This document shows, piece by piece, positions 7,722 through 55,050 of a stretch of 64,000 bases of DNA (the stretch's first letter is position 1; the number at the start of each line of letters is the position of its first letter). This stretch comes from Alphaproteobacteria bacterium. GTDB taxonomy: Bacteria > Pseudomonadota > Alphaproteobacteria > CBDBCS01. Below the pieces are notes generated by a model. That model worked only from the letters and a program-made list of their open reading frames with translations. It did not search any database and was not told where the DNA came from. The stretch spans positions 343,789 through 407,788 of the forward strand of contig CBDBCS010000006.1 of NCBI GenBank assembly GCA_965203415.1. The letters are read 5' to 3'. Position numbers and translations under genes: made by a program.

Positions 7722-7737
7722 AAAGCGACAAACCCTA

Positions 7738-9363: not shown

Positions 9364-9822
9364 GTCGTTGACTCTCTATTGGGGTGTCCTCGCGTCAGAG
9401 CTTCTGCTCTGCCAGCGAGCGACGGGCTCCACATACCCCGGAAAATGAACCGGGAAATTATCCGGGGACCTAAACGAAAACTAAACAAGTCCACACAAAA
9501 AACCGAAAAACAGACCACACAAAATTGACAGAACGAAACAAAAGGCCTATAAGCAAACGGGCCTCGACGCATCCCGGGAGATTCCTGAGTGTCCCGAGAC
9601 GTTCCCCGGGAGGTTCCTGGGAGTCCAGGAACCTCGCAGAGCCGCAGCGGGGGCCAGGACTCTACCGGACCTCGCCGCCCGTTTTGTCCCGGGATTAACG
9701 TTTTATCGTGCCTCCGGTACGTCTGCTGGCGTCTGCCGGTTCGAGGGCCTCTGTTCTGCCCCATAGACAAGCACATTTTTTCTTTTTTGACAAGGAACCC
9801 CCAAGGAATTCATGAGTCCATG

Positions 9823-12800
9823 GCACGCCCTTCAGAGAGGTCCTCGGTGGACGCTTCCGTGAACGCATCGACGAACGCATCGACACGGGTTCCAAATGGG
9901 GACGCCCCAGAGAAAGCCGCCTGGCCGGTGCGCCTTCCGCGCACCTCTTTCGAGATGCGCGCCAATCTCCCGCAAAAAGAGACGGCTTGGATACGCCTCT
10001 GGGACGAAACGAGGCTTTGGCAGCGTCTGCGCCGCCAATCCGAGGGGCGTCCTGTTTTTGTCCTCCACGACGGGCCGCCTTATGCGAATGGTCATCTCCA
10101 TATCGGGCATGCGGTCAATAAAATTCTGAAAGACATCGTCAATAAGACCCAACAGATGGCGGGCTATGACGCGCACTATGTCCCGGGGTGGGATTGCCAC
10201 GGCCTGCCTATCGAGTGGAAAATCGAGGAAACCTACCGGCAAAAAGGACGCAATAAAGACGAGGTTCCGGCGCTGGACTTTCGGGAAGAGTGCCGCCGAT
10301 TCGCTCAAGATTGGGTCGGCATTCAGTCTCGGGAATTTCAGCGCATGGGCGTGCTAGGGGCCTGGGACGACCCCTATCTGACGATGACGCCTCAAGCGGA
10401 GGCCGCTATTGCCGCCGAGATGGGCTCTTTTCTGTTGTCTGGGGCTCTCTATCGCAAAGCGCGCCCGGTGTTGTGGTCTATCGCCGAGAAAACCGCCCTC
10501 GCCGAGGCCGAAATAGAATATCAAGAGGTGAAATCCATCACCGTCCACGTACGTTTCCCGGTGCGCTCCGTCCCGCCCGGCTTGCCGCCCGAGCTCCAAG
10601 AGCGCACGGGCGTGGTGATCTGGACCACCACGCCCTGGACGCTGCCGGGCAATCGAGCCATCGCGTGTGGCTCCTCGACGCGTTACGTGCATTTTGAACT
10701 GACGGCCCCGGTGGCGGCGGCTTCGGGCGGGCGCGGTTTAGTGGTCGGCGACCGCTTGCTGGTGGCCGAAGAGCGGCTCGAGTCCCTATGCCAGGCGTGT
10801 GGCCTCGCGTCGGTGCGGCGGCTAGGCGTGTATGCGGGCGCAGACCTAGAGGGCCTCCGGTGCGCCCACCCCTGGGCCGAGGCGGGCTATGCGTTTGAGG
10901 TGCCGCTGGCGTGCGCCTCGTTCGTCGAGAGCGACCAAGGCACGGGGTTCGTCCATGTGGCCCCGGGGCATGGGCCCGATGATTTTGCCCTCGGCGAGAA
11001 AATCGGGCTCGAGAACCCGCCGACGCTGGACGAAGAGGGCCGCTTTCTGCCGCATCTGCCTCTGGTGGCTGGGCTTGAGGTCTATCGACAGGATGGCTCG
11101 ATCGGGCGCGGGACGCTGGCTTGCGTTCGGGCTCTGGCGGAGACGACGCCGCATTTATTGGCGAAGGGCTCTTTACGGCATGCTTATCCGCACAGCTGGC
11201 GTTCTAAAATTCCGCTGCTGTTCCGGAATACGCCTCAGTGGTTCATCCCCATGGCGGCACTGCCGGGAAAGACATCGGAGACGGGGCTCCGAGAGCAGGC
11301 TCTCGAGGCTCTAGACGCGGTTCGTTTTTTCCCCCCCGCCGGCGGCGACCGGCTCCGAGCCATGATCCGGGAAAGACCCGACTGGTGCGTCTCGAGGCAG
11401 CGGAGTTGGGGCGTTCCTCTCCCTGTTTTCTACCACCGCGAAACGGGCGAGCCGCTGCGTTCTCCAGAACTTATGAAGCGTATCGCGGACATTTTTTCCA
11501 AAGAGGGCTCGGATGCTTGGTACAAGCCGGGTGCCAAGCAACGCTTCCTGCAGGGCCTCGTCGCCGACGAAGAAATGGGCGACCTCATCCAGAGCACGGA
11601 CGTCGTGGATGTCTGGTTCGATTCGGGGTCTTCGCATGCGTTTGTTTTAGACAGACGGAAGCTCCCGTGGCCGGCCGACCTCTATCTGGAGGGCAGCGAC
11701 CAGCATCGCGGCTGGTTCCACTCTTCGCTGCTGGAGGCCGTCGGCACACGAGGCCGAGCCCCCTATAAAGCCGTCTTGACGCACGGTTTTGCCCTGGATG
11801 ACCGAGGCCGAAAAATGTCCAAATCGCTCGGCAATATCGTGACGCCCGAGACCATCATAAAACGCTATGGGGCCGATATTTTGCGGATCTGGGTCGTCGC
11901 CGCCGACTATCAAGAGGACATCCGTATCGGAGAAGAAATCCTCGCGACGCATGTGGACGCCTATCGGTCTCTGCGTAACACGCTGCGTTTTCTTTTAGGG
12001 AATATGTCTCATTTTGACCCTGCGCGGGCTGTCCAGTCCTACGAGGCCTTCCCGCCGCTGGAACGCTATATTTGTCACCGGCTCCGCGAGCTGCACCAGC
12101 GTCTGGAACACCATCGGACCCAACACGCTTATACGCGGATCTTTCGAGAAATCCTGACGTTTGCGACGGTGGAGCTCTCTTCGTTTTATTTTGATATCCG
12201 GAAGGATGTCCTGTATTGCGATGGGGACGACTCGGGGGCCTATCGAGCCTGCCAGACGGTGTTAGAGGCTCTGTTCCGGAGCCTCTGTACGTGGCTCGCC
12301 CCGATTCTGTCTTTCACCTGCGAAGAGGCATGGGAGGCCTTTCCACATCGAAGCCCCGAAAGGCCCTCTATTCACGAACAGAGCTTTTTCGAACCGCCGG
12401 CTCCTTGGCTTCAGGCGGGTGTGGGGGCGAATTGGCGTCAGAATATTCTCCCTCTGAGGAAAAAAGTCATGGCTCTTATGGAGGAAAAACGCAGGGACAA
12501 AATCATCGGGCCCGCTAGAGAATCCCAAATCCGCATCCAAAGCCCGGAATTGAAAACCGAGGGGAAAACCGGGGTGAAAACCGGAGAGACTCTTTTTGGT
12601 TTGTCGGCGCCTCAGTGGGCGGAACTGTGCCTCACCGCAGAGGCACACTTGTGTCAAGGCCAGACAGAGACAGGCGACCCGGGAGACACAGGCGACCCCG
12701 GAGACACAGGAGACCCTAGCGCCCTGGAGGTCCAGGCCGTCCAAGGCAAAAAATGCCAGAGATGCTGGCGCGTCCTATCCGAACTCGCAGAGTCCTCGGC

Positions 12801-24569: not shown

Positions 24570-27500
24570 ATGAAGCAAAAAATGATTTTGTCGGTGGCTC
24601 TGTGGCGGCAATTTTCAGCCGAAGAGCCCCGATTCGGAACGAGACCCTGCCCCTGGACGATAAGAGGGCCCCTTCTCGGAGCCCCGCTTCCTCTCGTTCT
24701 GGCGGCCTGTTCTTCGTTGGACGATGATTTTGCGGACCAAGAGTTTCCACAGGATGGCCTGTTCGTGGAATCCGATGGGAGTACGACCTACAGCCTCCCC
24801 GACGAAGTCGTTCTGGGTACCGACTCCGAGGAGGCCAGACGCACAAGTGCCTCTCCCAATGACGATGAAATTTTCGTCGTTGTCACGTTTAACCAGGACC
24901 TGGCCGGCCTGCCGCTAGACGAGATCGTCCTGATAGACGACGAAACGGAAGACGACGAGGACGAGACAACGGACACGACGCCCCAACCCCGCGGCCGCGT
25001 CACCAGTATCCAGAGCGACCCAGATAATCAACGCGTTTTTACGATCTCTCTGACCGTCGATGATGGGGCGGATGGTCTTCTGGCTCTTTTCTTGAAGGAG
25101 GGGGCTTTGGTGGAGAACAGCGATGGTTTTTTCTATCGTCTGGCGGCCGACCTGCCCCTTGGGCAGCATCGAGCCGACGGGATGGGGCCTCAGGCTCTTG
25201 GGGCGGACCCCGACGACTATCCAACGGGCGTGACCGAAGCGGTGAGCGTCTCTTCGGATGGGCCCAATGCCCGCCAAATCGTCTTCAGCCTCTTTTTCGA
25301 CGAGGACTATGAAGATTTAGACTGGGGCGACCTGGTGTTCCTGGACGCCGCAGGAAACACGCTGTCGATCGCCGAAGAGCTTGTGACGACCTCCATCGCC
25401 GACGGCGTCCTGAGCCTCGACGGCACCGAAGCCACGCCTCTGCCTCAATTTGTCGCGGTCACCGTCGAACTGGACGGGCGAGGCAGTATCAATGTCCGCC
25501 TCTCGGACGAACGGGCCGAGGAAGACGACGACGACGATGACCCCGCCACAGGCTATGGCCAAATCACCGACATTTACGGCAATGCCACGCTTTTCTCGGA
25601 CCTGACCCAAGAGGAACTAGACCGCTACCAGCTGGCGGACCCCTATTATTTTGACATTGTCTCGCCCGCCAGCCTGACAGTCGACGAAACAGGCCGAGAG
25701 GTGACCTTGGTCTTCTCGACGCCTGTAACGGCCGGTATGGTCGAGGCGGACGATTTCTCTCTTTTTGACGGCGACAGAGAACTCACCATCACCTCCCTCA
25801 CCGGGCTCACCGATACAGGGGACGAGGAGCTGGAAGAAGAGGAGCTGGAAGGAAATTTAAGCTACACCAGTTTCGTGCTCCACATCAGCGAGAGCCTGAA
25901 GGCCGACTCTGAAATAAGCCTGTCCTATGAAGGCGACATGGACAATCTCACCTACACGACGCGGCCGAGCGGCGGGCTTCAGGCGACCGAAACCTATGTT
26001 ACCAGTTTTACAAGAGACCAGGCCGAAAGAGCCCTGGGAGACCGTATCACGCTCGATCTGGTTCAACCGGGAGCCGATGCTTCGCTGGCGTTCACGGCGG
26101 GCGGAGCGATGCTCATGTTCGCCGAGGGCTCCGGCGGCGGCGGCGGCGTCCAGCTGGTCACCACCGAAACGAGCGAGGACTCTGAGACCGAGGCTGTGAC
26201 GACTCAAACGCTCCACCACGGCAGCGTGGGCGGCGCAGGCCGTGGCACGGACTCGGTTCTCACGGGCGGAGCGGGGTCTGATATTTTGTTCGCCGATGGG
26301 TCGGGCGGCGGCGGCGGCGGCGCTTCGACGACCTCCACGGACGATGATCTCAGCGCGGGCACACCGGGCGAAGGCGGAACCGTCGGCGACGGCGACGACG
26401 TCCTCCAAGGCGGCGGCGGGGTCGATATTTTAATCGGCGACGGCTTTGCGGGCTCGAGCGGCGAGGGAGCCGATGGCGGGGCCGGCGGCTTCGGCGGCGG
26501 CGGCGGCGGCGAGGCCTATCTCCGCTATGGCCCCGACCCAGACGATGAAGCGGAAACCATTGCGCTGGACGGCGGAACCGGGGGCGAAGGCGGCTTCGGC
26601 GGCGGCACCGGGGCCGGCTGGCAGACGGCCATCGACGCGGAAACCGACAGCGACGGCATGGTGACCCCGGCCACAGAGGCGATGGTGGTGTTTGCCCTCA
26701 CCCCGACCTACGGCCACCACGCCACCACCAGCATGCCCGAACGCATCGAGGCCGGCGCCGGCGTGAGTCCCGACGGGGCCACCGAAGACGACCCAAACGG
26801 CGGCGTTGTCCCCAATGACGAGGGCGACGCTGGCGCGCCGGGGGCACTCAATCTGGCTCTCGATCAGGCAAGCTTTGAGGCGTTCCTGGATCAATTGGAC
26901 CTCGACGGCAACGACGACGACGAGCGGCTGTGGGATGATTCGGCCATGCAGGCTCCCGGCCAGGGCCGAGACGTGCTGGATGGCGGGGCTGGGAATGATG
27001 TACTCCTGGGTGGGGGCGGAGCCGACCTCTTCGTTCTGGACCTGCGGACCATGGAGGACGGCGAAATCGACCGGATTCTGGACTGGGGCCGAGGCAATGA
27101 TTTGCTCCATCTCAAAGACAGAGACGGCGAAACCATCGCTTTTCCTTTTTTAAGGACGACCCGTTTCGACATAACGCGCGAGACAGGCTCAGACCGATTT
27201 GGCTCTTATTTGTCCATCGGGATCAAAGAGCTGGCAGAAGGCATGAATCCCGAAAAAAATGTCTCGCTGCGTCTTTATAGTCTCCATAATGCCGCCACGC
27301 TGACCGAGGACGATTTCACCGATGCGGCCTTTTATACGCCGTCTCTTTTTCAGCCTGTGTCGGGTACCAGTCGTCTGGTTTTTTACGACGGGTCGGGCAG
27401 TGGCGGGCGCGCTCAGGTCAGTTCTACCCGCGCCGGGAGCGGCGGTAACGGCGGCGGCGGCGGCGACGACGGCGAAGGCGACGACAGCGACCCCGACGGC

Positions 27501-30500
27501 CAGCAAGCCAGCGATTCGAGCGACATCCTCTTCGGCGACGGGTCCGGCGGCGGCGGCGGCGGCGGCGACCGGGCCGCGACTTATGGGCGCGGCGGCACGG
27601 GAGGCAGCGGCGACGACGTCCTCAACGGCAAGGGTGGCAATGATATTCTCTTCGGGGACGGGTATGGCGGCGGGAGCACGACTTCCAGCGGAAGCGGCCT
27701 GGGCGGTTTTGGCGGCGGCGGGCGCGGGCAACCGCTCACGGGAACCGCACAGTCCGAGTTCCTAGAGCGTCTCTCCGGGCTTGTCCCGTCTACCCCGGGC
27801 GAGGCGGGCGATGAAGCCGTCCATGCTTTTACGCTGACCGATGCGCTAGCTGGCACGCTCGATGACGCTTTTGAGGACCTCGGGGCCTTTTTCGAGGACA
27901 TGCTGGAGCGCATCGATTTCGATGGTATCGACGAAAAAAGCCGCGGCGATGACGCCCGAGTGTGGGGCGACGCCGACGGGATGGGAGCTCAGGCGCGAGG
28001 CGATGGCCGGGATGTCCTCCAGGGCGGGGCGGGGAGCGACTTTTTGATAGGGCTCGGCGGGTCGGATGTGTTCGTCCTCGACCTGGAAGAAAGCCAGGAC
28101 GGCGATATAGACCGCGTGCTGGACTGGGGACTGGGAACGGATTATCTCGAGATTCGAGATTTTAACGGCAATCTTCTCAATGCGCCTCTGACCTCCAATG
28201 TACAACCCGACAGCGAAGCCGAGGACGAGGACGAAGACGTCTGGACGATGCATCAACTAGAGGACGGGGTGCTCTCGATCACGCAGACGGAGGGTGCCGA
28301 CTTGTTCGGAAACTATCGGGCTCTGACGTTCCGCGTGGCCCCGGCGGCGGATAGCACAGGCGTCGAGGAAAAAATTGTTCAGACGCGGTTTTATAGGTTC
28401 CATGTAGATGCGATGATCGCGCCGACGGCCCTCACGAACGAGGACTTTCATGCCCCTGTTCTGTATAGTTCGGGCGGCGTTCTGGCGCTTTTAGACCGCT
28501 CGGGCGGCGGCGGCGGGGCCTCTTTGGATAGCAATCGAGTCGGTGGCGATGGCGGCGACGGCCAAGGCGAGGACGATGTCTATGAATCGGCTTCTGAGGG
28601 CTCCGATATTGTCTTTGCCGACGGGTCCGGCGGCGGCGGCGGCGGTATCCATGACGACAGCCGCAGTAGCACGCGCGCCGGAACAGGCGGCGAAGCCGGC
28701 AATGGCCACGATATTATCCGCACCGGGGCCGGGGACGATATTATTTTTGCCGACGGTTTCGACGGAGCCGCCGGCAATCGAGAAGATGGCGGCGCGGGCG
28801 GCTTCGGTTTTGCCGGCGGAGGGGCGGCAGGCGTCCAAGACGACGACGACAACACAGAGGGCGAAAACGGCGAGGATGGCTGGGGCCACGACCGGTTCTC
28901 TGGGAACGGGGCGGCGGCGGCGGGAACCACCCTATCCACGGGCGCCGGCGACGACGGCACCAACGGCGCGGCGGATAGTAACATTCTTTTTCCTTTGCTG
29001 GGGTCTCTGAGTCGGGCCGATTTTGAAGAGCTCTATGAGGCCATCGATAACGACGACAGCACCGACCGGACGCGCGGCGACGATGGGCGCATCACCTCCA
29101 GTCGGCTCGAATCGCTCGCCGGAGAGGGCTGGGACCGCCTGGATGCGGGCCCTGGCAATGACATTCTCATCACGGGGAATGGCGTCGACGTCGTCACCCT
29201 GGACATGCGAGAAATGGGCCACGGCGAAATCGACCGCGTCTTCGATTTCGAGGAAAGCTGGACAGATTTGAGCGATGAAGACGATGTCACGGGCGATTTA
29301 CTCTTTGTGATTGCCTCGGACGGTCGGCGCAATCTAGACCTCGACGATGTCGGCGAGGGCCTCACCCGGCGCGAATCCGTCGGCCGAGACCTTTTTGGAA
29401 GTTATTTGGAACAGACGCTCACGGATGACGTGAAAACTGTTTTTGTCCGGCTCTATACGCCGGGTTTTACGTCTGCCTCGGGCCGCGAATTAGAGCGCGA
29501 CAGCTTTCTGACACAGGATTATACCTCCGGCGGCGTCATTTTGTTCGGAGACCAGTCGGGCGGCGGCGGCGGCTATGACGACCGAGATGTCGACGAGGCG
29601 GAAGGCGGCGATGGCGGGCACGGCGGGAGCGGCCATGACCGGCTCCAGGGGACGGCGGGGTCGGATATTCTGTTCGGCGACGGGTCCGGCGGCGGCGGCG
29701 GCTCGAGCGAAAACGGCGATGACGGGACCCCTGGTCTCGCCGGGGCGGGCGACGACCGTCTATTCGGCGGAGCGGGCGACGATATTCTGTTCGGCGATGG
29801 GCTGGACGGGCTTTCCGCCGGGGTCGGCGGATTCGGGGGAGGTGCCAATGGCGTCGAAAACACCACGACGACCCTCGCCGAGGAACGCGAAGGCGGCTTC
29901 CAGGCAGCTCAGGCGGCGGCGGCCAATGGCGAAACGACCGCCGGAGACGCCCCCGGCGCCGGGAGCCATGGCGGCGATTTTGCCGTCACGCTGGATTTGG
30001 ACTATCTGGACTATCTGTCGCTCATAGAGGATATAGATTTGGATGGCACGCTCGATTTCGAGTTGTACGGCACGTCCTTCTGGCGCACGCGAGCCAGCCA
30101 CGGCACAGGCAACGACCAGCTAGATGGCGAAGCGGGCGATGATGTTCTCATTGGTCTGGGGGGCGAGGATGTGTTCGTTCTGGACTTGTCGAAAATGGCG
30201 CATAACGAGACAGACCGTATCTTGGATTGGGAGCCCACTCGAATCAATGACGACGATGAAGAGGTGCGGGTGGACCGCTTGAAACTTGTGGACTCGTCTG
30301 GCGAAGCGGTTGGAGCTCCTTTTGGGGACTCGGCGTTTACGCTGGACGGCTCGCGGGAGGGCACCGACCCCTGGGGGGCCTTTCTGGAGCTCGCGATTAC
30401 CGAAGAACAGGCGAATAGCGACTCGGCGAAGACGGTCTATGTCCGGTTCTATAACAATCACGCGCCGGCAACCGATGACATCGAGCCGATTACCGACGCA

Positions 30501-30515
30501 GATTTTACGATTTAA
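24570..30515 (+). CDS. giant (1981 aa) highly acidic Gly/Asp-rich repeat protein with RTX-like GGxGxD nonapeptides; probable exported, calcium-binding surface protein (possible lipobox LVLAAC near the N-terminus)
   Basis: Four roughly 360-415-aa modules each contain DILF(A/G)DGSGGGGGG (about 26281, 27527, 28607, 29657), then GGxGxDxLxG runs. Each also has a motif such as DVLDGGAGNDVLLGGGGADLFVLDL...EIDRILDWG. Extreme Asp/Glu/Gly content; (GGC)n microsatellites in the DNA. Confidence 0.7.
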   Translation: MKQKMILSVALWRQFSAEEPRFGTRPCPWTIRGPLLGAPLPLVLAACSSLDDDFADQEFPQDGLFVESDGSTTYSLPDEVVLGTDSEEARRTSASPNDDEIFVVVTFNQDLAGLPLDEIVLIDDETEDDEDETTDTTPQPRGRVTSIQSDPDNQRVFTISLTVDDGADGLLALFLKEGALVENSDGFFYRLAADLPLGQHRADGMGPQALGADPDDYPTGVTEAVSVSSDGPNARQIVFSLFFDEDYEDLDWGDLVFLDAAGNTLSIAEELVTTSIADGVLSLDGTEATPLPQFVAVTVELDGRGSINVRLSDERAEEDDDDDDPATGYGQITDIYGNATLFSDLTQEELDRYQLADPYYFDIVSPASLTVDETGREVTLVFSTPVTAGMVEADDFSLFDGDRELTITSLTGLTDTGDEELEEEELEGNLSYTSFVLHISESLKADSEISLSYEGDMDNLTYTTRPSGGLQATETYVTSFTRDQAERALGDRITLDLVQPGADASLAFTAGGAMLMFAEGSGGGGGVQLVTTETSEDSETEAVTTQTLHHGSVGGAGRGTDSVLTGGAGSDILFADGSGGGGGGASTTSTDDDLSAGTPGEGGTVGDGDDVLQGGGGVDILIGDGFAGSSGEGADGGAGGFGGGGGGEAYLRYGPDPDDEAETIALDGGTGGEGGFGGGTGAGWQTAIDAETDSDGMVTPATEAMVVFALTPTYGHHATTSMPERIEAGAGVSPDGATEDDPNGGVVPNDEGDAGAPGALNLALDQASFEAFLDQLDLDGNDDDERLWDDSAMQAPGQGRDVLDGGAGNDVLLGGGGADLFVLDLRTMEDGEIDRILDWGRGNDLLHLKDRDGETIAFPFLRTTRFDITRETGSDRFGSYLSIGIKELAEGMNPEKNVSLRLYSLHNAATLTEDDFTDAAFYTPSLFQPVSGTSRLVFYDGSGSGGRAQVSSTRAGSGGNGGGGGDDGEGDDSDPDGQQASDSSDILFGDGSGGGGGGGDRAATYGRGGTGGSGDDVLNGKGGNDILFGDGYGGGSTTSSGSGLGGFGGGGRGQPLTGTAQSEFLERLSGLVPSTPGEAGDEAVHAFTLTDALAGTLDDAFEDLGAFFEDMLERIDFDGIDEKSRGDDARVWGDADGMGAQARGDGRDVLQGGAGSDFLIGLGGSDVFVLDLEESQDGDIDRVLDWGLGTDYLEIRDFNGNLLNAPLTSNVQPDSEAEDEDEDVWTMHQLEDGVLSITQTEGADLFGNYRALTFRVAPAADSTGVEEKIVQTRFYRFHVDAMIAPTALTNEDFHAPVLYSSGGVLALLDRSGGGGGASLDSNRVGGDGGDGQGEDDVYESASEGSDIVFADGSGGGGGGIHDDSRSSTRAGTGGEAGNGHDIIRTGAGDDIIFADGFDGAAGNREDGGAGGFGFAGGGAAGVQDDDDNTEGENGEDGWGHDRFSGNGAAAAGTTLSTGAGDDGTNGAADSNILFPLLGSLSRADFEELYEAIDNDDSTDRTRGDDGRITSSRLESLAGEGWDRLDAGPGNDILITGNGVDVVTLDMREMGHGEIDRVFDFEESWTDLSDEDDVTGDLLFVIASDGRRNLDLDDVGEGLTRRESVGRDLFGSYLEQTLTDDVKTVFVRLYTPGFTSASGRELERDSFLTQDYTSGGVILFGDQSGGGGGYDDRDVDEAEGGDGGHGGSGHDRLQGTAGSDILFGDGSGGGGGSSENGDDGTPGLAGAGDDRLFGGAGDDILFGDGLDGLSAGVGGFGGGANGVENTTTTLAEEREGGFQAAQAAAANGETTAGDAPGAGSHGGDFAVTLDLDYLDYLSLIEDIDLDGTLDFELYGTSFWRTRASHGTGNDQLDGEAGDDVLIGLGGEDVFVLDLSKMAHNETDRILDWEPTRINDDDEEVRVDRLKLVDSSGEAVGAPFGDSAFTLDGSREGTDPWGAFLELAITEEQANSDSAKTVYVRFYNNHAPATDDIEPITDADFTI

Positions 30516-32002: not shown

Positions 32003-32078
32003 GGGGCCGTAGCTCAGTTGGGAGAGCGCCTGTTTTGCACGCAGGAGGCCATCGGTTCAAGCCCGTTCGGTTCCACCA
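32003..32078 (+). tRNA. tRNA-Ala (anticodon TGC)
   Basis: 76 nt: GGGGCCG TA GCTC AGTTGGGA GAGC G CCTGT TTTGCAC GCAGG AGGCC ATCGG TTCAAGC CCGTT CGGTTCC A CCA. G3:U70 Ala identity pair present; encoded CCA. One T:T mismatch in the T-stem noted. Confidence 0.8.
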
Positions 32079-32306: not shown

Positions 32307-32382
32307 GGGGCCGTAGCTCAGCAGCGAGAGTGCCCGTTTTGCACGCAGGAGGCCATCGGTTCGAACCCGTTCGGTTCCACCA
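32307..32382 (+). tRNA. second, diverged tRNA-Ala(TGC)-like copy (possible pseudo-tRNA) within a roughly 270-bp tandem duplication of the tRNA locus
   Basis: 76 nt, same anticodon loop and acceptor ends as the first copy. It has a C:A mismatch in the anticodon stem and an altered D-loop (AGCAGCGA). Its upstream region lacks the TTGACT -35-like hexamer seen before copy 1. Confidence 0.5.
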
Positions 32383-35919: not shown

Positions 35920-38900
35920 GTGGGCGATGAAGATGAATTTCACATGACTCTTTTGTCTTTTTTCCCGGTATGGTTCCCGGGCGGTCCAAATGGAGACTCG
36001 TCGAGACGGCGTTTGTTTCTCGGCACGGGCTTTTTGGGCCTCATCGCGGCGTGCGGTGGCAGCGACGGTTCGTCGAATTCGGGCGATGCAAACGGTGATT
36101 CCCAGACACGCGCGGATGGGAGCGAGCTCTATTCGGTCACGACAAGCCGGGATAATGACGGCAATCTTTTGGTGACGCTCGATTTCAGCCTGGCGATAAG
36201 CGGCATCGAGGAATCCGATTTCGACGTGCAGCATGCTTCGATTCTCAACACCTTAGCCACGGAGGCGGGGCCGAACAATCCTCTGGTCATCACCCTGAGT
36301 CTGGACGACCCGCGCTCTGGCCCGGCTCTGCTTATACTCAAATCGGGCGAAGTTTTCTCTCTTGTTGATTCGATGACGCCGGTCGTTGTGCCGGCATCCC
36401 AGACGCTCGTCGAGCTTCCGGCGGTCACGGTCTCGGTCTCGGTTTCGGAACCGGTTCCGGCGCCGGTTCCGGCGCCGGTTTCGCCTGACACGACGCCGCC
36501 CCGTCTTGAAGCGGATACGAACGGCGACACCGTCTTGATTTCCGAAACGACCCTGAACGACGCAGAGCCTCGGACGCATATCACATTTGCCTTTGACGAA
36601 AAAACGCGTGGCTTGCAGCTGGAGGACTTCCGGCTGGAAGGCGACGGAAGTCTCACGATGAGTTCGGGCGACCAACAAATTTTCACGCTGACGCTCGTCG
36701 CTGCCGAAGGCGTAGGCGAACAAACCCTGGCGATTTATTTTACCGAGAATGCCTCTTTCACGGACCTGGCGGGCAACACCGCCGTCGAGTTTCGAGGCAT
36801 GGAACTGGCAAGTTTTCTAGCGGACCGGCTTGCCCCGCGCTTGGCAGAAGGCCAAAGCCTACCTGAGACGCTCTGGTTCGGCGATTTTGTTCTGGACGCC
36901 ACGACGGGACGCCAGAGTCTGACGTATGATTTAGCCGATGCTTTCATCGATGATTCGGGCATGACGACCCTCTTTTTAGGGGAAGAATATCAAGCCCAGG
37001 AGCGTCTCAATTTTGTAGACGCAACGCTATCCGAATCGCTTCAATTGACGCTTGAGCTGGTGGAGGACGTAACCCAGCGGCCTTCTCTGGGAGAGCAACT
37101 GGAATTCAGCGTGCTAGACACAGCCGGCAATCGACTGGCGGTGGGTACGACGGTTTTCAGGACGGGGCTCCAGTTTCGCTATGACGACACCTGGTTGTAT
37201 TACACCATAGAGACCGTTCTCGGCGACGTCGCGCCTGCGGTTTCTCATTTTACACTCGAGGGTATCGGGGGGCAGGCCAACATTCGAGAGGTCTCGGAGC
37301 CCGTGGCCGGCAGCACGCCGTATCACCAGCGTTTCACTGTAACGATCGACCCGGGCGCGCAACTTGCGGATGCGACGGTGACGCTGGTGTCCTCCGAGCC
37401 GACGATTCGACTGCCGTCTCAACCGCTTGAGGTAGACAACACGCCGCTTGCTTTCAGTTCTCTGACGGTGACCACCGCACCGGGCCTATCAGGAGGTCTA
37501 CCGGAACTGCGGGCAGCCTTTGAGACAACAACTGTCACGCTTTCTTTCACCGACGACCAAATTGCTTTCCCCAGTTTTGACCCGCTAGATTTTGCTTTCG
37601 AGGGGCGAGGGCTTCACCTCGTTTCCATTGCTTCGCCGCAGCCGGATCAGATTGCGCTGGTGCTGGAGGCGGCTCCCGGTATTTTTGCCCAGTCTGTAAC
37701 GCTCATGTTTTCGCAGAGCGTCTCCATCGAAGACGACAACCGCAATCCGTCGGAGCCCGATTTTGCAGGGCAGGAGCTGGCGCGTTTTTTTGTCTCGACG
37801 GCACCGCCCGTCCGCCTGAGTTCCATCGAGAATCAAACGCTCGATTTCAGCAGCTCGCTGAACCCCAGTTTTGCCGACATCACTTTGTCAGAATTTTTCT
37901 CTATCGACGGGGCCGCCTTGCGTTACGCGGTTTCCTCGAACGGACAGACTGTCGCGGATACGACGATTTCTGATGAGGGCGTTCTTGTTCTCACGACGCG
38001 TCCCGGCATTTCGGGATCTCAGACGGTTACCGTTGTTGCGGAGGCCGCCTCCAACAATGGAGTCGCGGCCGGCGCCATGGTCGTGGCCATGGCAACGGAT
38101 AGTTTTGTGCTCACGGCTGCCCCCCCGACGAGTGCCGGGCCGACCTTGGAGGGTGTCACCTCGTTTGGTCTGCCTCTGCTGGCCCATCGTCGAGAGGGCG
38201 GTTTGGTCCTCACCTTCAGCGAGCCGTTGAATGAATCGCTGGACGTTACGGATTTTGTGATACAGGACGCTGCGGGCGACCCTGTGCCGGACCTCGCCCT
38301 CGAGGTGGCGAGCTATGGGGCTAGCAAGACCGTGACGCTTTTTGTGCAGGACACCGCCTCGGACCCTCGGAGCGCAATTCGGGCAACCGTGCAATTTGCT
38401 TCGGACGCCAGCTTTGGCGACCGGCAGAACAATCCGTTTACGGTTACGATTACGGCTCCGGACCCGGACGACCCGTCTATGACGGTCGTTCTTACGGATC
38501 AGAACGATTCGCTCCCCACTTTTCTGATCCAGACGGACCCGCCGCCGCCTTTTCTAGAGGCGTCCCGGCGTTATTTTCCTATCCCCGATACCGTCACGGC
38601 TGGAGCGGTGCTTTTTCCCCAAAATCTGGAGACTTACTTCGAAGGAGCCACGCGTTTCTCGTTTCGGGAAAGTGTCCGAACCGGGGACGGCGGCCCTATC
38701 GGGGCTTCCATCTCGGACGCCAATGTACTCACGGTAACGGCGACGGGCGAGGAGGGCCTAGAAACGCTCCTTGTGACCGCAAACTATCCAGAGAGCTTTG
38801 ACCTCGACAATCGAACCGTTTCGTGGATTTTCTGGCGAGGGGAGGCTCTCATAGAACCGACGGCAGGCGTTTCGCTTCCGACAAATCTGGCGAATTTTGC

Positions 38901-41900
38901 AACCCGCACGATTTGGGACCTGTCTGAGTATTTCGAGCCCACTTCGGATTCGGACCCGCCTCTAGGCTTCCAGTTTTCGCGAACGGGTTTGAGCCTGGTC
39001 GAGACCGAGCTCAACGGAACGAGCCTGTCTCTGACGCCCCTCGAGGGAACGCATGGGATGGAAGTTCTGACCGTCACAGCGGTGCACGACAATGGCTGGG
39101 GCCTGACGCATGCCATCACCCTCAGTTTCGAGGCTGTGACGCTGGACCTGGAGCCCGAGACCGCCGAAGAGGGAACCGATTTTAGCTTTGACCTCAAAAC
39201 GGTTCTGACGGGCTTTGGCGTCGCAGAGACGGACCTCTTGAGTTACGAAGTTTCGGCAACGCACGACGGGGCGGCCGTAGAGGACTTCGTCACCGTATCC
39301 ACGGCCGGCGGCCGGCGCGGCATCGTGCGAACGCCGGACGGCACGATGCTGCCCGAGGTGACCGCGGCCCAGCTCTATACTTTGTCCGTCACGCTGAAGT
39401 GGGAGGCCGGCACAACGACTCTGACGCACACCGATAGTTTTGAGCTCACGGTCACCAATAGGTCTGGCGACCTCGATCTCATTGCCAGACGCGATGTGAC
39501 CGCTCTGGGTAATTTTGATCTCGACACCGAGGCCCACCGGACCCGCCGTCTCGATGTGCTAAACGAGATTTTCACCACGACTCTGGCGGCGGCTGACATC
39601 GAGTTCTCTTACCAAGTTGCCCCTCGAGGCGACCCCCGCCAAACCGTGTTCGAGCTCACAGAGCCCTTCTTGAATTTAGCGGATGCTCTAGATGGTCTAT
39701 CGGCGTCGGCTCTTTTGACCCATACCGAGTTCGACTTGATTCTGCGCGCCCGCCCGAGCAACAGTCCAGAAGTCACGACGCATTCGATCCTGCTCCAGAG
39801 TGCAGTCCACCACAGTCATGCGCAGCTGGCGGCCGAGACAACCCAAGAGTTGCCGGCGGCTCTAGGCCTCATAGGGCGCAATCCTCAAACCAGTCGCGTT
39901 CTGGAGCCGTTCTATATCCAGAGCCTGGGCGACCTGGACCGAGACGGCCTAGACGACTTCGTCGTCGCCCAAGCCACGGGAGCCACGAGTCACTCGATTG
40001 TCCGAGGCTCCACCACTTTTGGAACCCACGATACCTACGAGGCGCACGCCGCCGAGCCGCCGCCCGCTGGAACCAGTCCGCCCGCCGCCGCTGTCCTAGA
40101 GAACTTCCCTCTAGACGGGGCGCTGCAGCGAGGGTGGCGCGGGGATCTCGATCAGGACGGGTCTCCGGATTTCGGTATCGGAGACCGTTTTTTTCTAGGC
40201 ACTTCAGGCGGCGGCTTGGCTCCAGCCGAGACTTTCCCCGCTATCGGAGCGTTGGGGACGGCGGCCCAGTCTACGACAGGGCCCGCCAACGCACAGACTC
40301 CCGTCGCAGAGATTCCCGTCGTAACGAGCTCAGGAGATGTGGACCAAAATGGTCTTGTGGATTGGGTCGTGCATGCCCCTGCCTCGGACGCGCTGGTTTT
40401 CATCCAGAGCGGCGTCTCTACGGCGGCGGACGTTTTTTTCGACGTGGCTCTGGTTCGGGCGCACGCCTTTCACGCCTCCTTTCATGCGGCGACGGATTTC
40501 TTTGTGCCGGATGCGGTGGAAGACGGCCGCTTGAGCCCGGCGTCGGGACCTGCCGGGAGTTATCAAACAGCGGGGCTCTTTCTTCGAACAACAGACACGG
40601 GAGACTCGGAGCTTGTAGAGGCGGGGTTTAGTTTTTACCATGCCTCGTTTTCATCGCATCCCGGGTCGGCTTTACCGGCCGGAGACATCAATGGCGACGG
40701 TGTAGACGATGTGCTTGTCACCATCCCCGGCCGCGATGCGCCCGGAGCCGCCAACGCCGGGGCCGTGGCCGTTTTATACGGCAGCTCTGGCCTGGGCCCA
40801 GGTCTAGGGCCGGGCGTCTATTATCAGACGCACACGCCGCAGCTCGATGCCTCGGCGGAAGCGACCCCCGGCCTGGGGAGCCTCGGCTTCCGAGCCCTCA
40901 ACGAAACGCATCTGAATGGCGGCCGCCATGGCTTTATGATTCACAGTTCCGAGGCAGGCCAGCTTCTGGGTCGCCATGTCGTCCCGGTCGGAGACTTCAA
41001 TGGCGACGGGTTGGCAGACGTTCTCCTTGGGGTGCCGGGAGTAAGCGGTGAGGGCACGCATCGGCTTCTTGTTTATTTGGGAACGGCCAGTGCGTCTGCT
41101 CAGCTGGACATTGGCGAGCGAGACGCAGAAGCTTTCCAAAACAGTTTTTTTGAAATCACCTCGAGTGTCGATTCTTTCGGTCAGACGCTTGCCCCCGTTG
41201 GCGATTTTAACGGCGACGGGCTGAGCGATTTTCTGGTCGGCGGCCCAGAGGCGAGCTATCTGTTCTTCGGACAACGCGGCTCCCGAGCCGACCTCGCGGG
41301 CATGGTTTTTTCTGCCGACACGGCCGAGACAACACCTGGTGGAGCACCAACGCAAATGCTGCGCTTAGCCGGCGAGGGCCACGCCGTTCAGGGGCTTGGC
41401 GACATCAATGGCGATGGTCTCGCGGATGTGGCCTATGGGACGCAGCACGGCACGTTTCGAGTTCTCTATGGCAACACGCATTACGGCACAGAAGCGGGCG
41501 AGGGCACGCCCTCGCCTTACGCCTCTCATGCGGGAGACGACCATCGGGACGCGCCGATTCAGAGCGGCCAAACGGCCTTAAGTGGCACGGGCGACGACAC
41601 GCTCTATCTCGAGAGCACCGGGGCCTTCATGGTGGACGGCGGGGCCGGCCAAGATACGCTTGTCGTCGGGCGCGGCCTCGAATTGGACCTCACGACCCAT
41701 GGACCCGGGCCTGGGGCAGACCTGGGGGCGAGACTCGGGCGGGGCGACGTCCGAAACATAGAGACACTCGCCCTGTATGACGAATCTGAAAGCGTCGTGA
41801 AACTCGACAGAGCCGCCGTCCTGGACCTGATCGAGACGAGTCCTCTTCAAACCTTGAACGTCACCTTCGAAGGCGGCGGAGTCGAAACCATTACCGCACG

Positions 41901-42174
41901 TCTATTGCGTATTGAACGCGCCGACTCGCCGGACAATGCCGCCCCAGCGGCATCGGACCCTCTCACCGAGGTCCTGTTGCAACAGAGCCATTTTGAAGAC
42001 CCCGAAGACCACGACCGAATCTATCGAGAGGGACGCTGGTATGCTCTGAATCGATCCGATACGTCGGACGCGGAGGACACATCGGACGCGGGGGACGCGG
42101 CGAGCGGGACTCTGATGGGTGTCTGGGTCGAGGCCTCTGAAGCTTCTATCGAGGTTGAGCTAGCAGCGTTCTAG
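35920..42174 (+). CDS. giant (2084 aa) Tat-signal lipoprotein with Ig-like/beta-rich repeats, FG-GAP-like DxNGDGxxD repeats and an RTX-like C-terminal module; probable surface adhesin-like protein
   Basis: N-terminus SRRRLFLGTGFLGLIAACGG has a twin-arginine motif plus lipobox. Repeated GDFNGDGLADVLLG, GDINGDGLADVAYG and GDINGDGVDDVLVT (FG-GAP/integrin-alpha-like) occur around aa 1500-1800. The C-terminal ...LSGTGDDTLYLESTGAFMVDGGAGQDTLVVG...LDL resembles the modules of the 24570 gene. Confidence 0.7.
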   Translation: MGDEDEFHMTLLSFFPVWFPGGPNGDSSRRRLFLGTGFLGLIAACGGSDGSSNSGDANGDSQTRADGSELYSVTTSRDNDGNLLVTLDFSLAISGIEESDFDVQHASILNTLATEAGPNNPLVITLSLDDPRSGPALLILKSGEVFSLVDSMTPVVVPASQTLVELPAVTVSVSVSEPVPAPVPAPVSPDTTPPRLEADTNGDTVLISETTLNDAEPRTHITFAFDEKTRGLQLEDFRLEGDGSLTMSSGDQQIFTLTLVAAEGVGEQTLAIYFTENASFTDLAGNTAVEFRGMELASFLADRLAPRLAEGQSLPETLWFGDFVLDATTGRQSLTYDLADAFIDDSGMTTLFLGEEYQAQERLNFVDATLSESLQLTLELVEDVTQRPSLGEQLEFSVLDTAGNRLAVGTTVFRTGLQFRYDDTWLYYTIETVLGDVAPAVSHFTLEGIGGQANIREVSEPVAGSTPYHQRFTVTIDPGAQLADATVTLVSSEPTIRLPSQPLEVDNTPLAFSSLTVTTAPGLSGGLPELRAAFETTTVTLSFTDDQIAFPSFDPLDFAFEGRGLHLVSIASPQPDQIALVLEAAPGIFAQSVTLMFSQSVSIEDDNRNPSEPDFAGQELARFFVSTAPPVRLSSIENQTLDFSSSLNPSFADITLSEFFSIDGAALRYAVSSNGQTVADTTISDEGVLVLTTRPGISGSQTVTVVAEAASNNGVAAGAMVVAMATDSFVLTAAPPTSAGPTLEGVTSFGLPLLAHRREGGLVLTFSEPLNESLDVTDFVIQDAAGDPVPDLALEVASYGASKTVTLFVQDTASDPRSAIRATVQFASDASFGDRQNNPFTVTITAPDPDDPSMTVVLTDQNDSLPTFLIQTDPPPPFLEASRRYFPIPDTVTAGAVLFPQNLETYFEGATRFSFRESVRTGDGGPIGASISDANVLTVTATGEEGLETLLVTANYPESFDLDNRTVSWIFWRGEALIEPTAGVSLPTNLANFATRTIWDLSEYFEPTSDSDPPLGFQFSRTGLSLVETELNGTSLSLTPLEGTHGMEVLTVTAVHDNGWGLTHAITLSFEAVTLDLEPETAEEGTDFSFDLKTVLTGFGVAETDLLSYEVSATHDGAAVEDFVTVSTAGGRRGIVRTPDGTMLPEVTAAQLYTLSVTLKWEAGTTTLTHTDSFELTVTNRSGDLDLIARRDVTALGNFDLDTEAHRTRRLDVLNEIFTTTLAAADIEFSYQVAPRGDPRQTVFELTEPFLNLADALDGLSASALLTHTEFDLILRARPSNSPEVTTHSILLQSAVHHSHAQLAAETTQELPAALGLIGRNPQTSRVLEPFYIQSLGDLDRDGLDDFVVAQATGATSHSIVRGSTTFGTHDTYEAHAAEPPPAGTSPPAAAVLENFPLDGALQRGWRGDLDQDGSPDFGIGDRFFLGTSGGGLAPAETFPAIGALGTAAQSTTGPANAQTPVAEIPVVTSSGDVDQNGLVDWVVHAPASDALVFIQSGVSTAADVFFDVALVRAHAFHASFHAATDFFVPDAVEDGRLSPASGPAGSYQTAGLFLRTTDTGDSELVEAGFSFYHASFSSHPGSALPAGDINGDGVDDVLVTIPGRDAPGAANAGAVAVLYGSSGLGPGLGPGVYYQTHTPQLDASAEATPGLGSLGFRALNETHLNGGRHGFMIHSSEAGQLLGRHVVPVGDFNGDGLADVLLGVPGVSGEGTHRLLVYLGTASASAQLDIGERDAEAFQNSFFEITSSVDSFGQTLAPVGDFNGDGLSDFLVGGPEASYLFFGQRGSRADLAGMVFSADTAETTPGGAPTQMLRLAGEGHAVQGLGDINGDGLADVAYGTQHGTFRVLYGNTHYGTEAGEGTPSPYASHAGDDHRDAPIQSGQTALSGTGDDTLYLESTGAFMVDGGAGQDTLVVGRGLELDLTTHGPGPGADLGARLGRGDVRNIETLALYDESESVVKLDRAAVLDLIETSPLQTLNVTFEGGGVETITARLLRIERADSPDNAAPAASDPLTEVLLQQSHFEDPEDHDRIYREGRWYALNRSDTSDAEDTSDAGDAASGTLMGVWVEASEASIEVELAAF

Positions 42175-51010: not shown

Positions 51011-52480
<1,470 letters not shown>

Positions 52481-52485
52481 CTCCC

Positions 52486-52923
52486 ATGACCATGACTGAA
52501 AAGACTCGTTTATTCCAATTTGATTTGGTCGCTCCTGATAAGCATCTCTGTGCGTGCCAGGCAGAGATGGTCATCGTCCCAGGCGTGGAGGGCGATTTGG
52601 GCTTGATGGCTCAAAGTGCCCCGATCATCTCGGAGCTCCGCCCGGGCGTGGTGCCTGTCTATCGGGATGGGACGAGGCAAGCTCTCTATTTTATTTTTAG
52701 GGGGCTGGCAGAGACAGACGGCCATGTACTCACGGTCCTAACGTCTTTGGCTTATGATTTATCCCAATTCTCGGCCTCGGCGGCAGAGGCGGCTCTGAAG
52801 GAAGTCCGGCAGACCCCGCCAGAAACGAACCGGGAGACACCTCAGGACCCGCGCCTGACGCCGGAGCACTATTTGGTGGGACTAGAGGCTCTGTGCGCCT
52901 TTTACGAAAACCCGGTTTACTAG
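52486..52923 (+). CDS. atpC: F0F1 ATP synthase subunit epsilon
   Basis: 145 aa; position after atpD and an epsilon-like N-terminal beta-sandwich sequence (LFQFDLVAPDKHL...VVPGVEGDLGLMAQSAPIISELRPGVV). Confidence 0.88.
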   Translation: MTMTEKTRLFQFDLVAPDKHLCACQAEMVIVPGVEGDLGLMAQSAPIISELRPGVVPVYRDGTRQALYFIFRGLAETDGHVLTVLTSLAYDLSQFSASAAEAALKEVRQTPPETNRETPQDPRLTPEHYLVGLEALCAFYENPVY

Positions 52924-52982
52924 CCGAGACCGGTTTGAGCCGACCGAGGGAGCCCGAAGAGACGTGAGGTAACGGCGGCATC

Positions 52983-53900
52983 ATGCATAAAATCGAAAAT
53001 GGGATTTTCTACACGCTCGCCAATCCCTTCGCCAATGAGGCTTTCAGACGCTGGGCTCGCAAAGCAGACTTACCCGCCAACCCCATCCTAGAGCCCTTTG
53101 CGGGGGCGAATCACTTGATTCGCCATCTCGAGACAATGGAGCTTTGCCACCGATTCGATTCTTTTGACATCGCGCCGAATGCGCCCTCTGTCGTCCAAAG
53201 AGACACCCTCCAAGACTTTCCCGACGGGTACGCGGTGTGCATCACGAACCCGCCCTGGCTGGCCAAAAACAGAGCCAAGAGAGTCGGCGTGCGTTATCCT
53301 CAAACGGCTTACAATGATTTGTACAAATTGGCTTTGTCGAAGTGTCTCGAGCACTGCGCGTGGCTTGCGGCCCTTGTGCCCGAGTCCTTTATTCAATCCG
53401 ACAGTCTGCAGGACCGACTGACCGATTTTGTGTCGCTGACGGGAGACTTATTCGGCGACACGACGCATCCGTCGGGTTTAGCTCTGTTTGCGCCCGCCTC
53501 GAGTCGCGACGTTGTGGTCTGGCAAAACAACAAGAAACTAGGCTTGTTGTCGGCTCTCAAGGCTCTGCGCCCGGTGCAGAACAAGGCCGTGCGCGTGCGG
53601 TTCAACGACCCGCGCGGGAATGTCGGCCTGGTCGCCATTGACAATATAAGAGAACCCTCCATCCGTTTCTGTGACCCTGTGGAATTGGGGTGTTATTCTG
53701 TCAGGCACAGCTCGCGTGCTATCACGAAACTATGGGTGGAGGGCGCGATAAAAACGAGTCTGTGGAATGCTTGGATAGCTCAATTCAGACGAGACACGCA
53801 CGATATCCTCTTGACGAGTTTCAAGGGAAGAAGAAAAGACGGCCAATACAGGCGCCGGATGGACTATGCCTTGGCGCGGCGTATCATCAACCATGTCTGA
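52983..53900 (+). CDS. orphan SAM-dependent methyltransferase with NPPW catalytic motif (gamma-class N6-adenine or N-methyltransferase-like), lower-GC gene
   Basis: Motif I-like ILEPFAGANHL, then motif IV AVCITNPPWLAKN (D/N-P-P-Y/F/W family). Local GC visibly lower (about 48-52%) than the roughly 62-65% context. No restriction endonuclease gene adjacent. Confidence 0.6.
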   Translation: MHKIENGIFYTLANPFANEAFRRWARKADLPANPILEPFAGANHLIRHLETMELCHRFDSFDIAPNAPSVVQRDTLQDFPDGYAVCITNPPWLAKNRAKRVGVRYPQTAYNDLYKLALSKCLEHCAWLAALVPESFIQSDSLQDRLTDFVSLTGDLFGDTTHPSGLALFAPASSRDVVVWQNNKKLGLLSALKALRPVQNKAVRVRFNDPRGNVGLVAIDNIREPSIRFCDPVELGCYSVRHSSRAITKLWVEGAIKTSLWNAWIAQFRRDTHDILLTSFKGRRKDGQYRRRMDYALARRIINHV

Positions 53901-54098
53901 AGATGTGGTTAGAAAAGTTTCTTGTCTCATCCCCAAAAGAGGGTTACGTTTATTGCAATTAATTGCGGTCCAAATAAGCTTAAGGCATGGCGTGTGCTTA
54001 CCAGAGCTCGGAAGCCCTCAGAGACTCAGAAGCACACCCTTTCATGGAGAAGCCCTCTAAAATAGACGAAACCTTGTGAGCGGAATAGTATTGGTCGT

Positions 54099-54320
54099 AT
54101 GGACGAGACTCTTTTGAAATTGCTGGTGTGCCCCAAGACGCGTGAGCCTCTTGTTTGGGATAAGACGCGCCATGAACTCGTGAGCCCGGCGGCAGGCCTC
54201 GCCTATCCCATCCGAGATGGCATCCCGATCATGCTCGTCGAGGAGGCGCGGGTCCTGGAAACACCTCCCGACCAAGAAAGTCCCGACCGCGCCTCGGGTA
54301 CGCCTGAATCCGGCGTGTAA
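54099..54320 (+). CDS. Trm112/YcaR-family small Zn-ribbon protein (UPF0434)
   Basis: 73 aa; [51 protein letters not shown] matches the Trm112-like family consensus (LL..LVCP.....L.......L.....[17 protein letters not shown]). Confidence 0.75.
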
Positions 54321-54342
54321 GTCCAGCGTGTGAGGTCTGACT

Positions 54343-55050
54343 ATGCACCCTGAAAGCCTGCATCGGCGGTTACCTTTTCGGCCTTTTCCAGGCCAGCGTT
54401 GTGCTTGGGCGGGCTGCGGGCAGGACGGTGCTTTTCCGGCCCCCAGAGACCGACATTTTCTGATCTATTATTTTTTCTGCAGAGACCACATCGCCGAATA
54501 TAACAAAGCGTGGGACTATTATCGGGGCATGTCCACCGCCGAGATCGATCAGGACCGCACCGAAGACGCGCACGGCCGACGGCCCACTTGGACGGCGCGG
54601 GGCGGCGGGGCGGGGCCTCGAGAAGAGTCTTTTTTGCGCCAGCATGCAGCCCGGGCTCATGGCCGAGCCCCTGGCCAAGCTCATGGGGCCCGGGGGACGT
54701 ATCGAGGGACGTATCGGGGGACGTGGGAGAACCACGAGCCCCATGCGGGCGGGGAAGACGCCGCCGAAGAACACCCGTCTCGGGGCGACGAGGCAACCTC
54801 GGCAGCCTCGTCGGCTCGGCGCGTTCCGCTTCCGGGGGCGGTCCGGCGCGCCTGTCGGACCCTGGGGTATGACAGTAGTGCGCAGGGTCTCCCGGCGTTA
54901 GAGGCACTCAAGGGGCATTACAAAGCCCTCGTCCGCGAGCTGCATCCCGACCTGAACGGAGCAGACCGGACCCGGGAAGAGAAACTCAAACGCGTCAATG
55001 CGGCCTATAGCCTTTTGTGCCGTCACCTTGGACAGAGGAAGCTCCACTGA
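54343..55050 (+). CDS. J-domain (DnaJ-like) protein with N-terminal Cys/His Zn-ribbon-like segment and low-complexity middle
   Basis: C-terminal J domain (KGHYKALVRELHPDLNGADRTREEKLKRVNAAYSLL; HPD motif). N-terminal CAWAGCG...FFCRDHIAEY. Confidence 0.7.
   Translation: MHPESLHRRLPFRPFPGQRCAWAGCGQDGAFPAPRDRHFLIYYFFCRDHIAEYNKAWDYYRGMSTAEIDQDRTEDAHGRRPTWTARGGGAGPREESFLRQHAARAHGRAPGQAHGARGTYRGTYRGTWENHEPHAGGEDAAEEHPSRGDEATSAASSARRVPLPGAVRRACRTLGYDSSAQGLPALEALKGHYKALVRELHPDLNGADRTREEKLKRVNAAYSLLCRHLGQRKLH

Follow-up and report, generated by a model that had tools for sequence, protein, structure and literature searches.

We analysed a stretch of 64,000 nucleotides from an alphaproteobacterial assembly (contig CBDBCS010000006.1, positions 343,789 to 407,788), called here the window, whose first nucleotide is position 1 for all coordinates. 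The gene under study occupies 52983..53900 on the plus strand and encodes a protein of 305 aa, which we interpret as an orphan DNA adenine methyltransferase on the basis of the open reading frame (ORF), an AlphaFold2 model, structural matches obtained with Foldseek, weak matches to the Pfam family Eco57I and the ratio of non-synonymous to synonymous substitutions (dN/dS). The ORF begins 59 bp past atpC (52486..52923, plus strand; Pfam ATP-synt_DE_N), the last gene of the atpHAGDC operon and the upstream border of the insertion site. Downstream, on the same strand, follow a spacer of 198 bp (53901..54098), which is the site of an endonuclease gene in other members of the family and in which no remnant of such a gene was found, and a Trm112/UPF0434-family gene of 73 aa (54099..54320, plus strand), a neighbour that we place outside the system. 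An earlier note on this DNA had described the ORF, its motifs ILEPFAGANHL and NPPW and the Trm112-like ORF 198 bp downstream, and all of these were borne out by the ORFs and by the match of the latter to PF03966 (E 7.9e-15, above the curated cut-off). In our opinion the window gene is, with good probability, a stand-alone DNA adenine methyltransferase that stems from a type II restriction-modification (R-M) cassette and whose restriction partner is absent.

The methyltransferase and its predicted fold

The two motifs expected of such an enzyme are present in the window protein. Motif I, the S-adenosylmethionine (AdoMet)-binding loop ILEPFAGANHL, comprises residues 35-45 (53085..53117, plus strand) and is placed after the model strand 35-37, and the catalytic motif IV, NPPW, comprises residues 89-92 (53247..53258, plus strand) and stands directly after the model strand 85-88. 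In an alignment of 25 family members 80 positions are invariant; the invariant residues are L36, E37, P38, F39, A40, G41 and N43 in motif I, and T88, N89, P90, P91 and W92 in the region of motif IV. The C-terminal part presents two further conserved blocks, SIRFC and KGxRKDGxYRRRxD.

The AlphaFold2 model, built on this 25-member alignment (pLDDT 87, pTM 0.86), presents a Rossmann core of alternating strands and helices followed by a separate, beta-rich C-terminal domain (residues ~175-305; 53505..53897, plus strand), which presumably serves for the recognition of the DNA target. The best Foldseek match in the PDB was M.TaqI (E 6.6e-9, probability 1.00, TMq 0.54), and the match was full-length over both domains; M.BseCI, CamA, type I HsdM subunits and PacII came next. 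All the named top fold matches are N6-adenine DNA methyltransferases, and among the 50 fold matches listed there was no HemK/Mtq2, Trm11, Bud23, Trm9 or rRNA methyltransferase. The protein thus combines a class I Rossmann fold carrying motifs I and IV with the linear order motif I, motif IV, C-terminal domain, which is the gamma-class arrangement. By fold and motifs, the window gene most likely encodes a gamma-class (M.TaqI-like) N6-adenine DNA methyltransferase, and its product would methylate adenine in a short DNA site.

The sequence searches were less informative. More than 1100 homologues were found at 50-60% identity, and all the named ones are annotated as 'hypothetical protein'. In Pfam the window protein matched only Eco57I, at 15.5 bits and therefore under the cut-off of 25.3; neither Eco57I nor N6_Mtase reached its gathering score, NCBIfam gave no match, no rRNA methyltransferase family was matched in either collection, and PADLOC returned two very weak MTase_II matches. 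Weak, sub-threshold Eco57I matches around motif IV were obtained for 17 of the 25 family members, with a best E of 3e-5. The suggestion of the earlier note that the gene could encode an orphan DNA N6-methyladenine (m6A) methyltransferase is supported by the M.TaqI-type fold, by these weak Eco57I matches and by the lack of an endonuclease at the locus.

The endonuclease-like partner and the transposon carriage of the family

The family was examined at 80 loci from species-representative genomes, each with up to 8 kb on either side, and the neighbouring ORFs were clustered. A scan of the genome contigs with a single protein gave no match, and it was an alignment-based scan that recovered these loci, whose methyltransferases are about 50-60% identical to the window protein. 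The only widely shared neighbour was a gene of ~225 aa on the same strand, which starts 3-73 bp before, or at most 35 bp after, the stop codon of the methyltransferase gene. It was intact in 34 of the 78 loci with enough downstream sequence, and in all 34 of these systems it directly overlaps or abuts the methyltransferase gene; at ten further loci, N- or C-terminal fragments or split copies of it occupied the same position.

With respect to the nature of this partner, 16 of 27 partner proteins matched the same part of the Pfam profile of the restriction enzyme Tsp45I, with a best E of 5.3e-6 that is below the gathering threshold. The structural model of the partner (pLDDT 94) gave fold matches to BstEII, EcoO109I and Can2/Card1 at E ~1e-3, and weaker ones to EcoRI, PspGI and HincII; a search of PDB sequences with the partner profile returned only a spurious match. 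From profile and model, the partner is a probable Tsp45I-like PD-(D/E)XK endonuclease, and this nuclease assignment is weaker than that of the methyltransferase. The family is best interpreted as a type II R-M cassette, methyltransferase first and endonuclease second, from which the endonuclease gene has often been lost. The view of the earlier note that the gene is not an obvious R-M system holds, then, for the window locus and fails for the family to which the gene belongs.

Two loci present unusual arrangements. At L091 (3279-8328; 61% identity) there is a tandem duplication of a unit formed by a methyltransferase of 306 aa, an endonuclease-like protein of 217 or 220 aa and an arginyl-tRNA-protein transferase, the gene of the latter lying on the strand opposite to the methyltransferase/endonuclease-like pair. 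At L008 (6450-12320), from a Stappiaceae metagenome-assembled genome (MAG), the methyltransferase has no overlapping partner, and three endonuclease-like paralogues surround it, namely a tandem pair upstream and a single copy 2.7 kb downstream.

The MAGs that contributed the 80 loci, mostly of sponge origin, belong to Poribacteria, Dehalococcoidia, Acidimicrobiia, Terriglobia, Bacteroidota, Rhodothermales, Nitrospinales and Spirochaetota, and to Alpha-, Beta- and Gammaproteobacteria. The flanking genes differ from locus to locus. The record titles often carry sponge-specific names (Poribacteria, Porisulfidus, AqS2, Spongiisociaceae, Poriferihabitaceae); according to the literature AqS2, Porisulfidus and Poriferihabitaceae are sponge-associated, and many such MAGs originate from sponge genome projects. 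R-M systems have been described as enriched in sponge microbiomes (PMC11410982; PMC5099237). Outside these 80 loci, eight full-length methyltransferases of the family, with 35-51% identity, were observed on IMG/VR contigs classed as viral (L093-L100), and four of the eight have an endonuclease-like neighbour.

In some genomes the cassette is cargo of an IS1595-family transposon. In ~11 loci a transposase of this family (PF12762, PF12760) lies directly upstream and in the same orientation. A Nitrosomonadaceae genome carries a unit of 2831 bp, formed by transposase, methyltransferase and endonuclease-like gene, which is 100% identical at two loci (L016:6958-9788 and L021:6958-9788); a third locus (L022) shares 1876 bp with them, including both cassette genes, and has the transposase inverted. 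Likewise, in an Azotimanducaceae genome a unit of 2833 bp is 99.9% identical at two loci (L054:~6952-9778 and L055:~6952-9778). Terminal inverted repeats of ~24 nt (GGGAATTAyATAC...) form the ends of the units, and each of the four insertions examined is flanked by a perfect target duplication of 8 bp (atagcaat, ttatatta, aaaagtta and ctaatttt). Furuta et al. 2010 (PMC2853133) reported R-M units that resemble transposons, with inverted repeats and 8-bp duplications, as well as R-M systems and solitary methyltransferase genes flanked by insertion sequence elements. IS1595-family elements with passenger genes were described by Siguier et al. 2009, as cited in PMC2853133.

The window locus and the alternative explanations

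As we mentioned before, the spacer behind the window gene holds no remnant of the endonuclease gene. In searches by tblastn with 40 partner proteins, no homologue was found in the 64-kb window and none in the spacer at E<=10, in agreement with the earlier note, which had seen no adjacent restriction endonuclease. The window locus therefore lacks the adjacent endonuclease gene that characterizes type II R-M systems. The transposase and the terminal repeats, which mark the cassette as transposon cargo at L016, L021, L054 and L055, were not found either: tblastn gave no IS1595 transposase homologue in the window, and the IS1595-type terminal repeat had no match there with three mismatches allowed.

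Three close relatives, all from one metagenome (L081, L082 and L092), present the same order as the window, namely atpC, methyltransferase, Trm112, DnaJ, FemAB_like, AlgH and DsbD, with no endonuclease. Their methyltransferases are 84-94% and their Trm112 proteins 87-95% identical to those of the window. The dN/dS of the methyltransferase against these relatives is 0.10-0.17, compared with 0.11 for atpC and 0.05-0.15 for Trm112, and its dS resembles that of the flanking genes. Such values indicate that the gene has been inherited vertically in the clade under purifying selection. It can be called an orphan in the usual sense: no cognate endonuclease lies in the 64 kb examined, and the gene is kept by selection in the clade. 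The nearest relatives beyond the clade, L001 and L091 (61% identity), both have the endonuclease and lie in unrelated genomic contexts. The taxa of the closest methyltransferase relatives and of the Trm112 matches point to an alphaproteobacterial source of the window.

The methyltransferase of L082 has a frameshift after residue ~233, which is due to a single 1-nt deletion; the frame downstream is perfectly conserved. We considered pseudogenisation and rejected it in favour of a probable assembly error, since atpA, atpG and FemAB are split in that assembly too. In the contigs of sample ERZ25068803 the split genes atpA, atpG and FemAB_like were observed at L082:715-1900 and at L092:3340-5985 and 10020-11277, and the indels in these contigs probably reflect long-read error and not pseudogenisation.

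Around the methyltransferase gene there is a perfect inverted repeat of 14 nt, at 52843-52856 (CAGGACCCGCGCCT) and 54244-54257 (AGGCGCGGGTCCTG), with one arm within atpC and the other within the Trm112 gene. Both arms occur in L092 and are absent from L082, and the repeat is probably there by chance.

The earlier note had considered the gene visibly lower in GC than the genome and had taken this as a sign of horizontal acquisition. The difference in overall GC exists and is marginal: 42 long ORFs of the window average 0.600 (sd 0.030), and the gene, at 0.548, is the third lowest of them (z = -1.7), with similar values for atpC (0.562) and algH (0.555). At third codon positions the GC is typical, 0.660 compared with an average of 0.656 (z +0.08). 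The shortfall is located in the first codon positions (0.546) and thus reflects amino-acid composition, not foreign codon usage, and only the 198-bp spacer is clearly richer in AT (GC 0.449). We rejected low GC as a sign of recent transfer because of the typical third-position value. A horizontal origin as such is supported by the cross-phylum distribution and the transposon carriage of the family.

The history that would best account for these observations begins with an ancestral cassette in which the methyltransferase gene was followed by an overlapping, translationally coupled gene for a Tsp45I-like PD-(D/E)XK endonuclease of ~225 aa. Among sponge-associated bacteria this cassette would pass from phylum to phylum, carried in some genomes by IS1595-family transposons. 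In the ancestor of the window clade, a single acquisition would have inserted the cassette, or the methyltransferase gene alone, behind atpC and in front of a Trm112 gene that had been relocated; the endonuclease would then have been lost, or would never have arrived, while the methyltransferase was retained under purifying selection. The enzyme would bind AdoMet through motif I, flip the target adenine into the NPPW pocket and form m6A, the short target site being recognized by the C-terminal domain. As to the reason for its retention, we suggest, with less confidence, that it may shield the chromosome whenever the same circulating R-M cassette invades again, or that it may have an epigenetic or regulatory role.

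Several points weigh against this reading. No curated Pfam or NCBIfam model is matched above its cut-off, so the class assignment depends on the predicted fold and the motifs, and searches of PDB sequences with the single methyltransferase sequence or with a profile gave no match. Moreover, the evidence that the partner is a nuclease is weak, with Foldseek E values of ~1e-3 and Pfam scores under the gathering threshold. As the window carries no footprint of an endonuclease or of transposon ends, a loss of the endonuclease, rather than acquisition of the methyltransferase alone, has to be deduced from the relatives. Finally, the genome is seen here through 64 kb of a contig of ~1.79 Mb, and a distant endonuclease may exist.

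This last point leads to the alternative that survives best, namely that the window gene is one half of a working R-M system whose cognate endonuclease is encoded outside the window. The derivation of the family from an R-M cassette and the paralogues at L008, which lie near the methyltransferase without overlapping it, would agree with such a split system. Against it, besides the absence of any partner homologue in the window, stands the fact that in 34 of 34 intact systems the endonuclease gene overlaps or abuts that of the methyltransferase. Furthermore, at ten loci the endonuclease has decayed beside a methyltransferase that was kept, so that a solitary copy is the usual end state. We consider a split system improbable.

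Enzymes that act on other substrates also have to be considered. Motifs of the NPPx type occur as well in HemK/PrmC, RlmJ, RlmF and TrmN6, and the window gene follows a housekeeping operon with no predicted terminator between them. The product could be an m6A methyltransferase of rRNA, tRNA or mRNA, or a glutamine or lysine methyltransferase of proteins, recruited to the vicinity of translation-related genes. However, no family of this kind was matched in Pfam or NCBIfam, the structural neighbours are DNA methyltransferases, including M.TaqI over its two domains, carriage on transposons with an endonuclease-like gene fits DNA modification, and the patchy spread across phyla is not what a housekeeping RNA methyltransferase would show. 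An RNA or protein substrate appears to us still less probable than a distant endonuclease.

A third possibility, put forward by the earlier note, is that the methyltransferase and the adjacent Trm112 form a holoenzyme, in which Trm112 would bind and activate an enzyme acting on protein, rRNA or tRNA. The two genes are close and on the same strand, and the order methyltransferase-Trm112 was kept in the three close relatives and was thus present in all four clade genomes seen. In addition, the function of bacterial Trm112 was not known as of a 2017 review, which also mentions that some bacterial Trm112 are fused to methyltransferase domains (PMC5372719); in newer literature on the function of bacterial Trm112 we found nothing relevant.

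Co-occurrence was evaluated in two ways: by phmmer, with the window Trm112 against the ORFs of at least 50 aa in the 80 family loci, and with a profile hidden Markov model of 120 homologues against stop-to-stop segments of 35 aa or more, with a limit of E <= 1. Both assays agreed that a Trm112 gene lies within 8 kb of the methyltransferase at one of the 80 loci (L078), 3.7 kb away from it. The adjacency is confined to one clade, and the habitual partner of the family is the endonuclease-like gene.

The distant alphaproteobacterial orthologues of Trm112, with 60-72% identity, point in the same direction. They sit in a recurrent context of thioredoxin-TPR, LON_substr_bdg and Trm112, followed by GBBH-like_N in three of four alphaproteobacterial contig sets, and in none of these four sets is a methyltransferase next to Trm112. 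The earlier note had named a usual Trm112 context free of the methyltransferase as an observation that would speak against its proposal, and such a context does exist, although it is this one and not of the kdsB/ycaR type. Compared with L083-L090, the Trm112 gene of the window clade has left the usual context and is now flanked by the atp operon and by a DnaJ-domain gene. The window Trm112 has a low-complexity C-terminal tail and, with 73 aa, exceeds the shorter orthologues listed, of 55-72 aa. Since the listed fold matches are N6-adenine DNA methyltransferases, and neither Pfam, NCBIfam nor these folds gave homology to the client families Mtq2/HemK2, Trm11, Bud23 and Trm9, we assign to the holoenzyme a very small probability. 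Most likely the adjacency is a coincidence that arose from a rearrangement of gene order in the clade. It is just as doubtful that the orphan methyltransferase has been wired in this clade alone to the neighbouring Trm112, with the latter acting, for example, as activator or stabiliser; if this were true, bacterial Trm112 would have a first concrete partner among the methyltransferases.

That the gene is what remains of a mobile element, decaying and without function, as the missing partner and transposon ends and the L082 frameshift might suggest, is hardly credible given that the catalytic motifs and the 80 family-invariant positions are intact, that the dN/dS is near that of atpC and that the frameshift is a probable assembly error.

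What emerges here is an R-M family, so far unannotated, that is common to several phyla of bacteria associated with sponges and is sometimes borne by IS1595 elements; the window gene itself is of a kind already known, an orphan type II methyltransferase. The methyltransferase and the endonuclease-like partner, both annotated so far as 'hypothetical' and lacking models in Pfam and NCBIfam, can now be interpreted together as a type II R-M cassette. That the endonuclease often decays while the methyltransferase is kept agrees with what is known of the life cycle of R-M systems, of which the window gene would be one end product. These results could aid the annotation of MAGs of sponge symbionts and the reading of their methylomes. 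On the other hand, the locus does not help to find out what bacterial Trm112 does, since the two genes are adjacent in one lineage only and the habitual partner of the methyltransferase family is another.

Regarding the rest of the window, the Trm112 gene is followed by a DnaJ-domain gene, a FemAB_like gene, algH (minus strand) and a DsbD-like gene. A scan of 52400-54500 for promoters and terminators gave nothing exceeding the shuffled expectation. Two very large ORFs were observed, at 24570-30515 for an RTX-repeat protein of 1981 aa and at 35920-42174 for an FG-GAP/bacterial Ig-like protein of 2084 aa; bacteria that live with hosts often have large secreted or adhesin-type proteins of this kind. 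In Rfam, only a glycine riboswitch (2407-2538, minus strand) and two tRNAs (32003-32075 and 32307-32379, both plus strand) exceeded the gathering score.

Comparison with known systems

Among characterized enzymes, the closest in predicted structure is M.TaqI (PDB 1AQI, 2ADM, 1G38). Both proteins have an N-terminal Rossmann domain with motif I, an NPP-aromatic motif IV ~50 residues further on and a second, C-terminal domain, and both belong to a type II R-M context, at the level of the family in the case of the window gene. However, the sequence identity is 10-14%, with no sequence or profile match between them; with 305 aa against 382-421 the window protein is smaller by ~80-115 residues, its motif IV reads NPPW where M.TaqI has NPPY, and its C-terminal domain carries the family-specific blocks SIRFC and KGxRKDGxYRRRxD. 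A similar relation holds for the proteins of PF07669 (Eco57I) and PF02384 (N6_Mtase), such as M.BseCI, CamA and HsdM. The weak Eco57I matches of the family members and the presence of CamA and M.BseCI among the top folds bring the window protein near them, whereas its sub-threshold score (15.5 bits against 25.3) and its length (305 aa against about 540-610) set it apart. CamA is a solitary adenine methyltransferase of C. difficile.

On the side of the endonuclease, the comparison is with the Tsp45I family (PF06300). The partners of the family match the C-terminal part of this profile in 16 of 27 cases and have a BstEII/EcoO109I-like model; these matches stay below the Pfam threshold, and the partner itself is not in the window.

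The systems Trm112-Mtq2, -Trm11, -Bud23 and -Trm9 resemble the locus in that a Trm112-family zinc-knuckle protein is encoded next door and the methyltransferase is of class I, its NPP-aromatic motif being like that of Mtq2/HemK2. They differ in that the window protein has only the generic fold in common with the clients, and in that its family does not co-occur with Trm112.

The transposon-like R-M units described in PMC2853133 offer a closer parallel for the relatives of the window gene, in which methyltransferase and endonuclease-like gene lie inside an IS1595 element with inverted repeats and 8-bp duplications; the window copy departs from them by having neither transposase nor terminal repeats. 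With regard to Dam (alpha class) and CcrM (beta class), the window protein belongs by its predicted arrangement to the gamma permutation class and has only the fold in common with them, and its conservation was demonstrated for one narrow clade. Like Dam and CcrM, nevertheless, the window gene is solitary, chromosomally fixed in its clade and maintained there by purifying selection.

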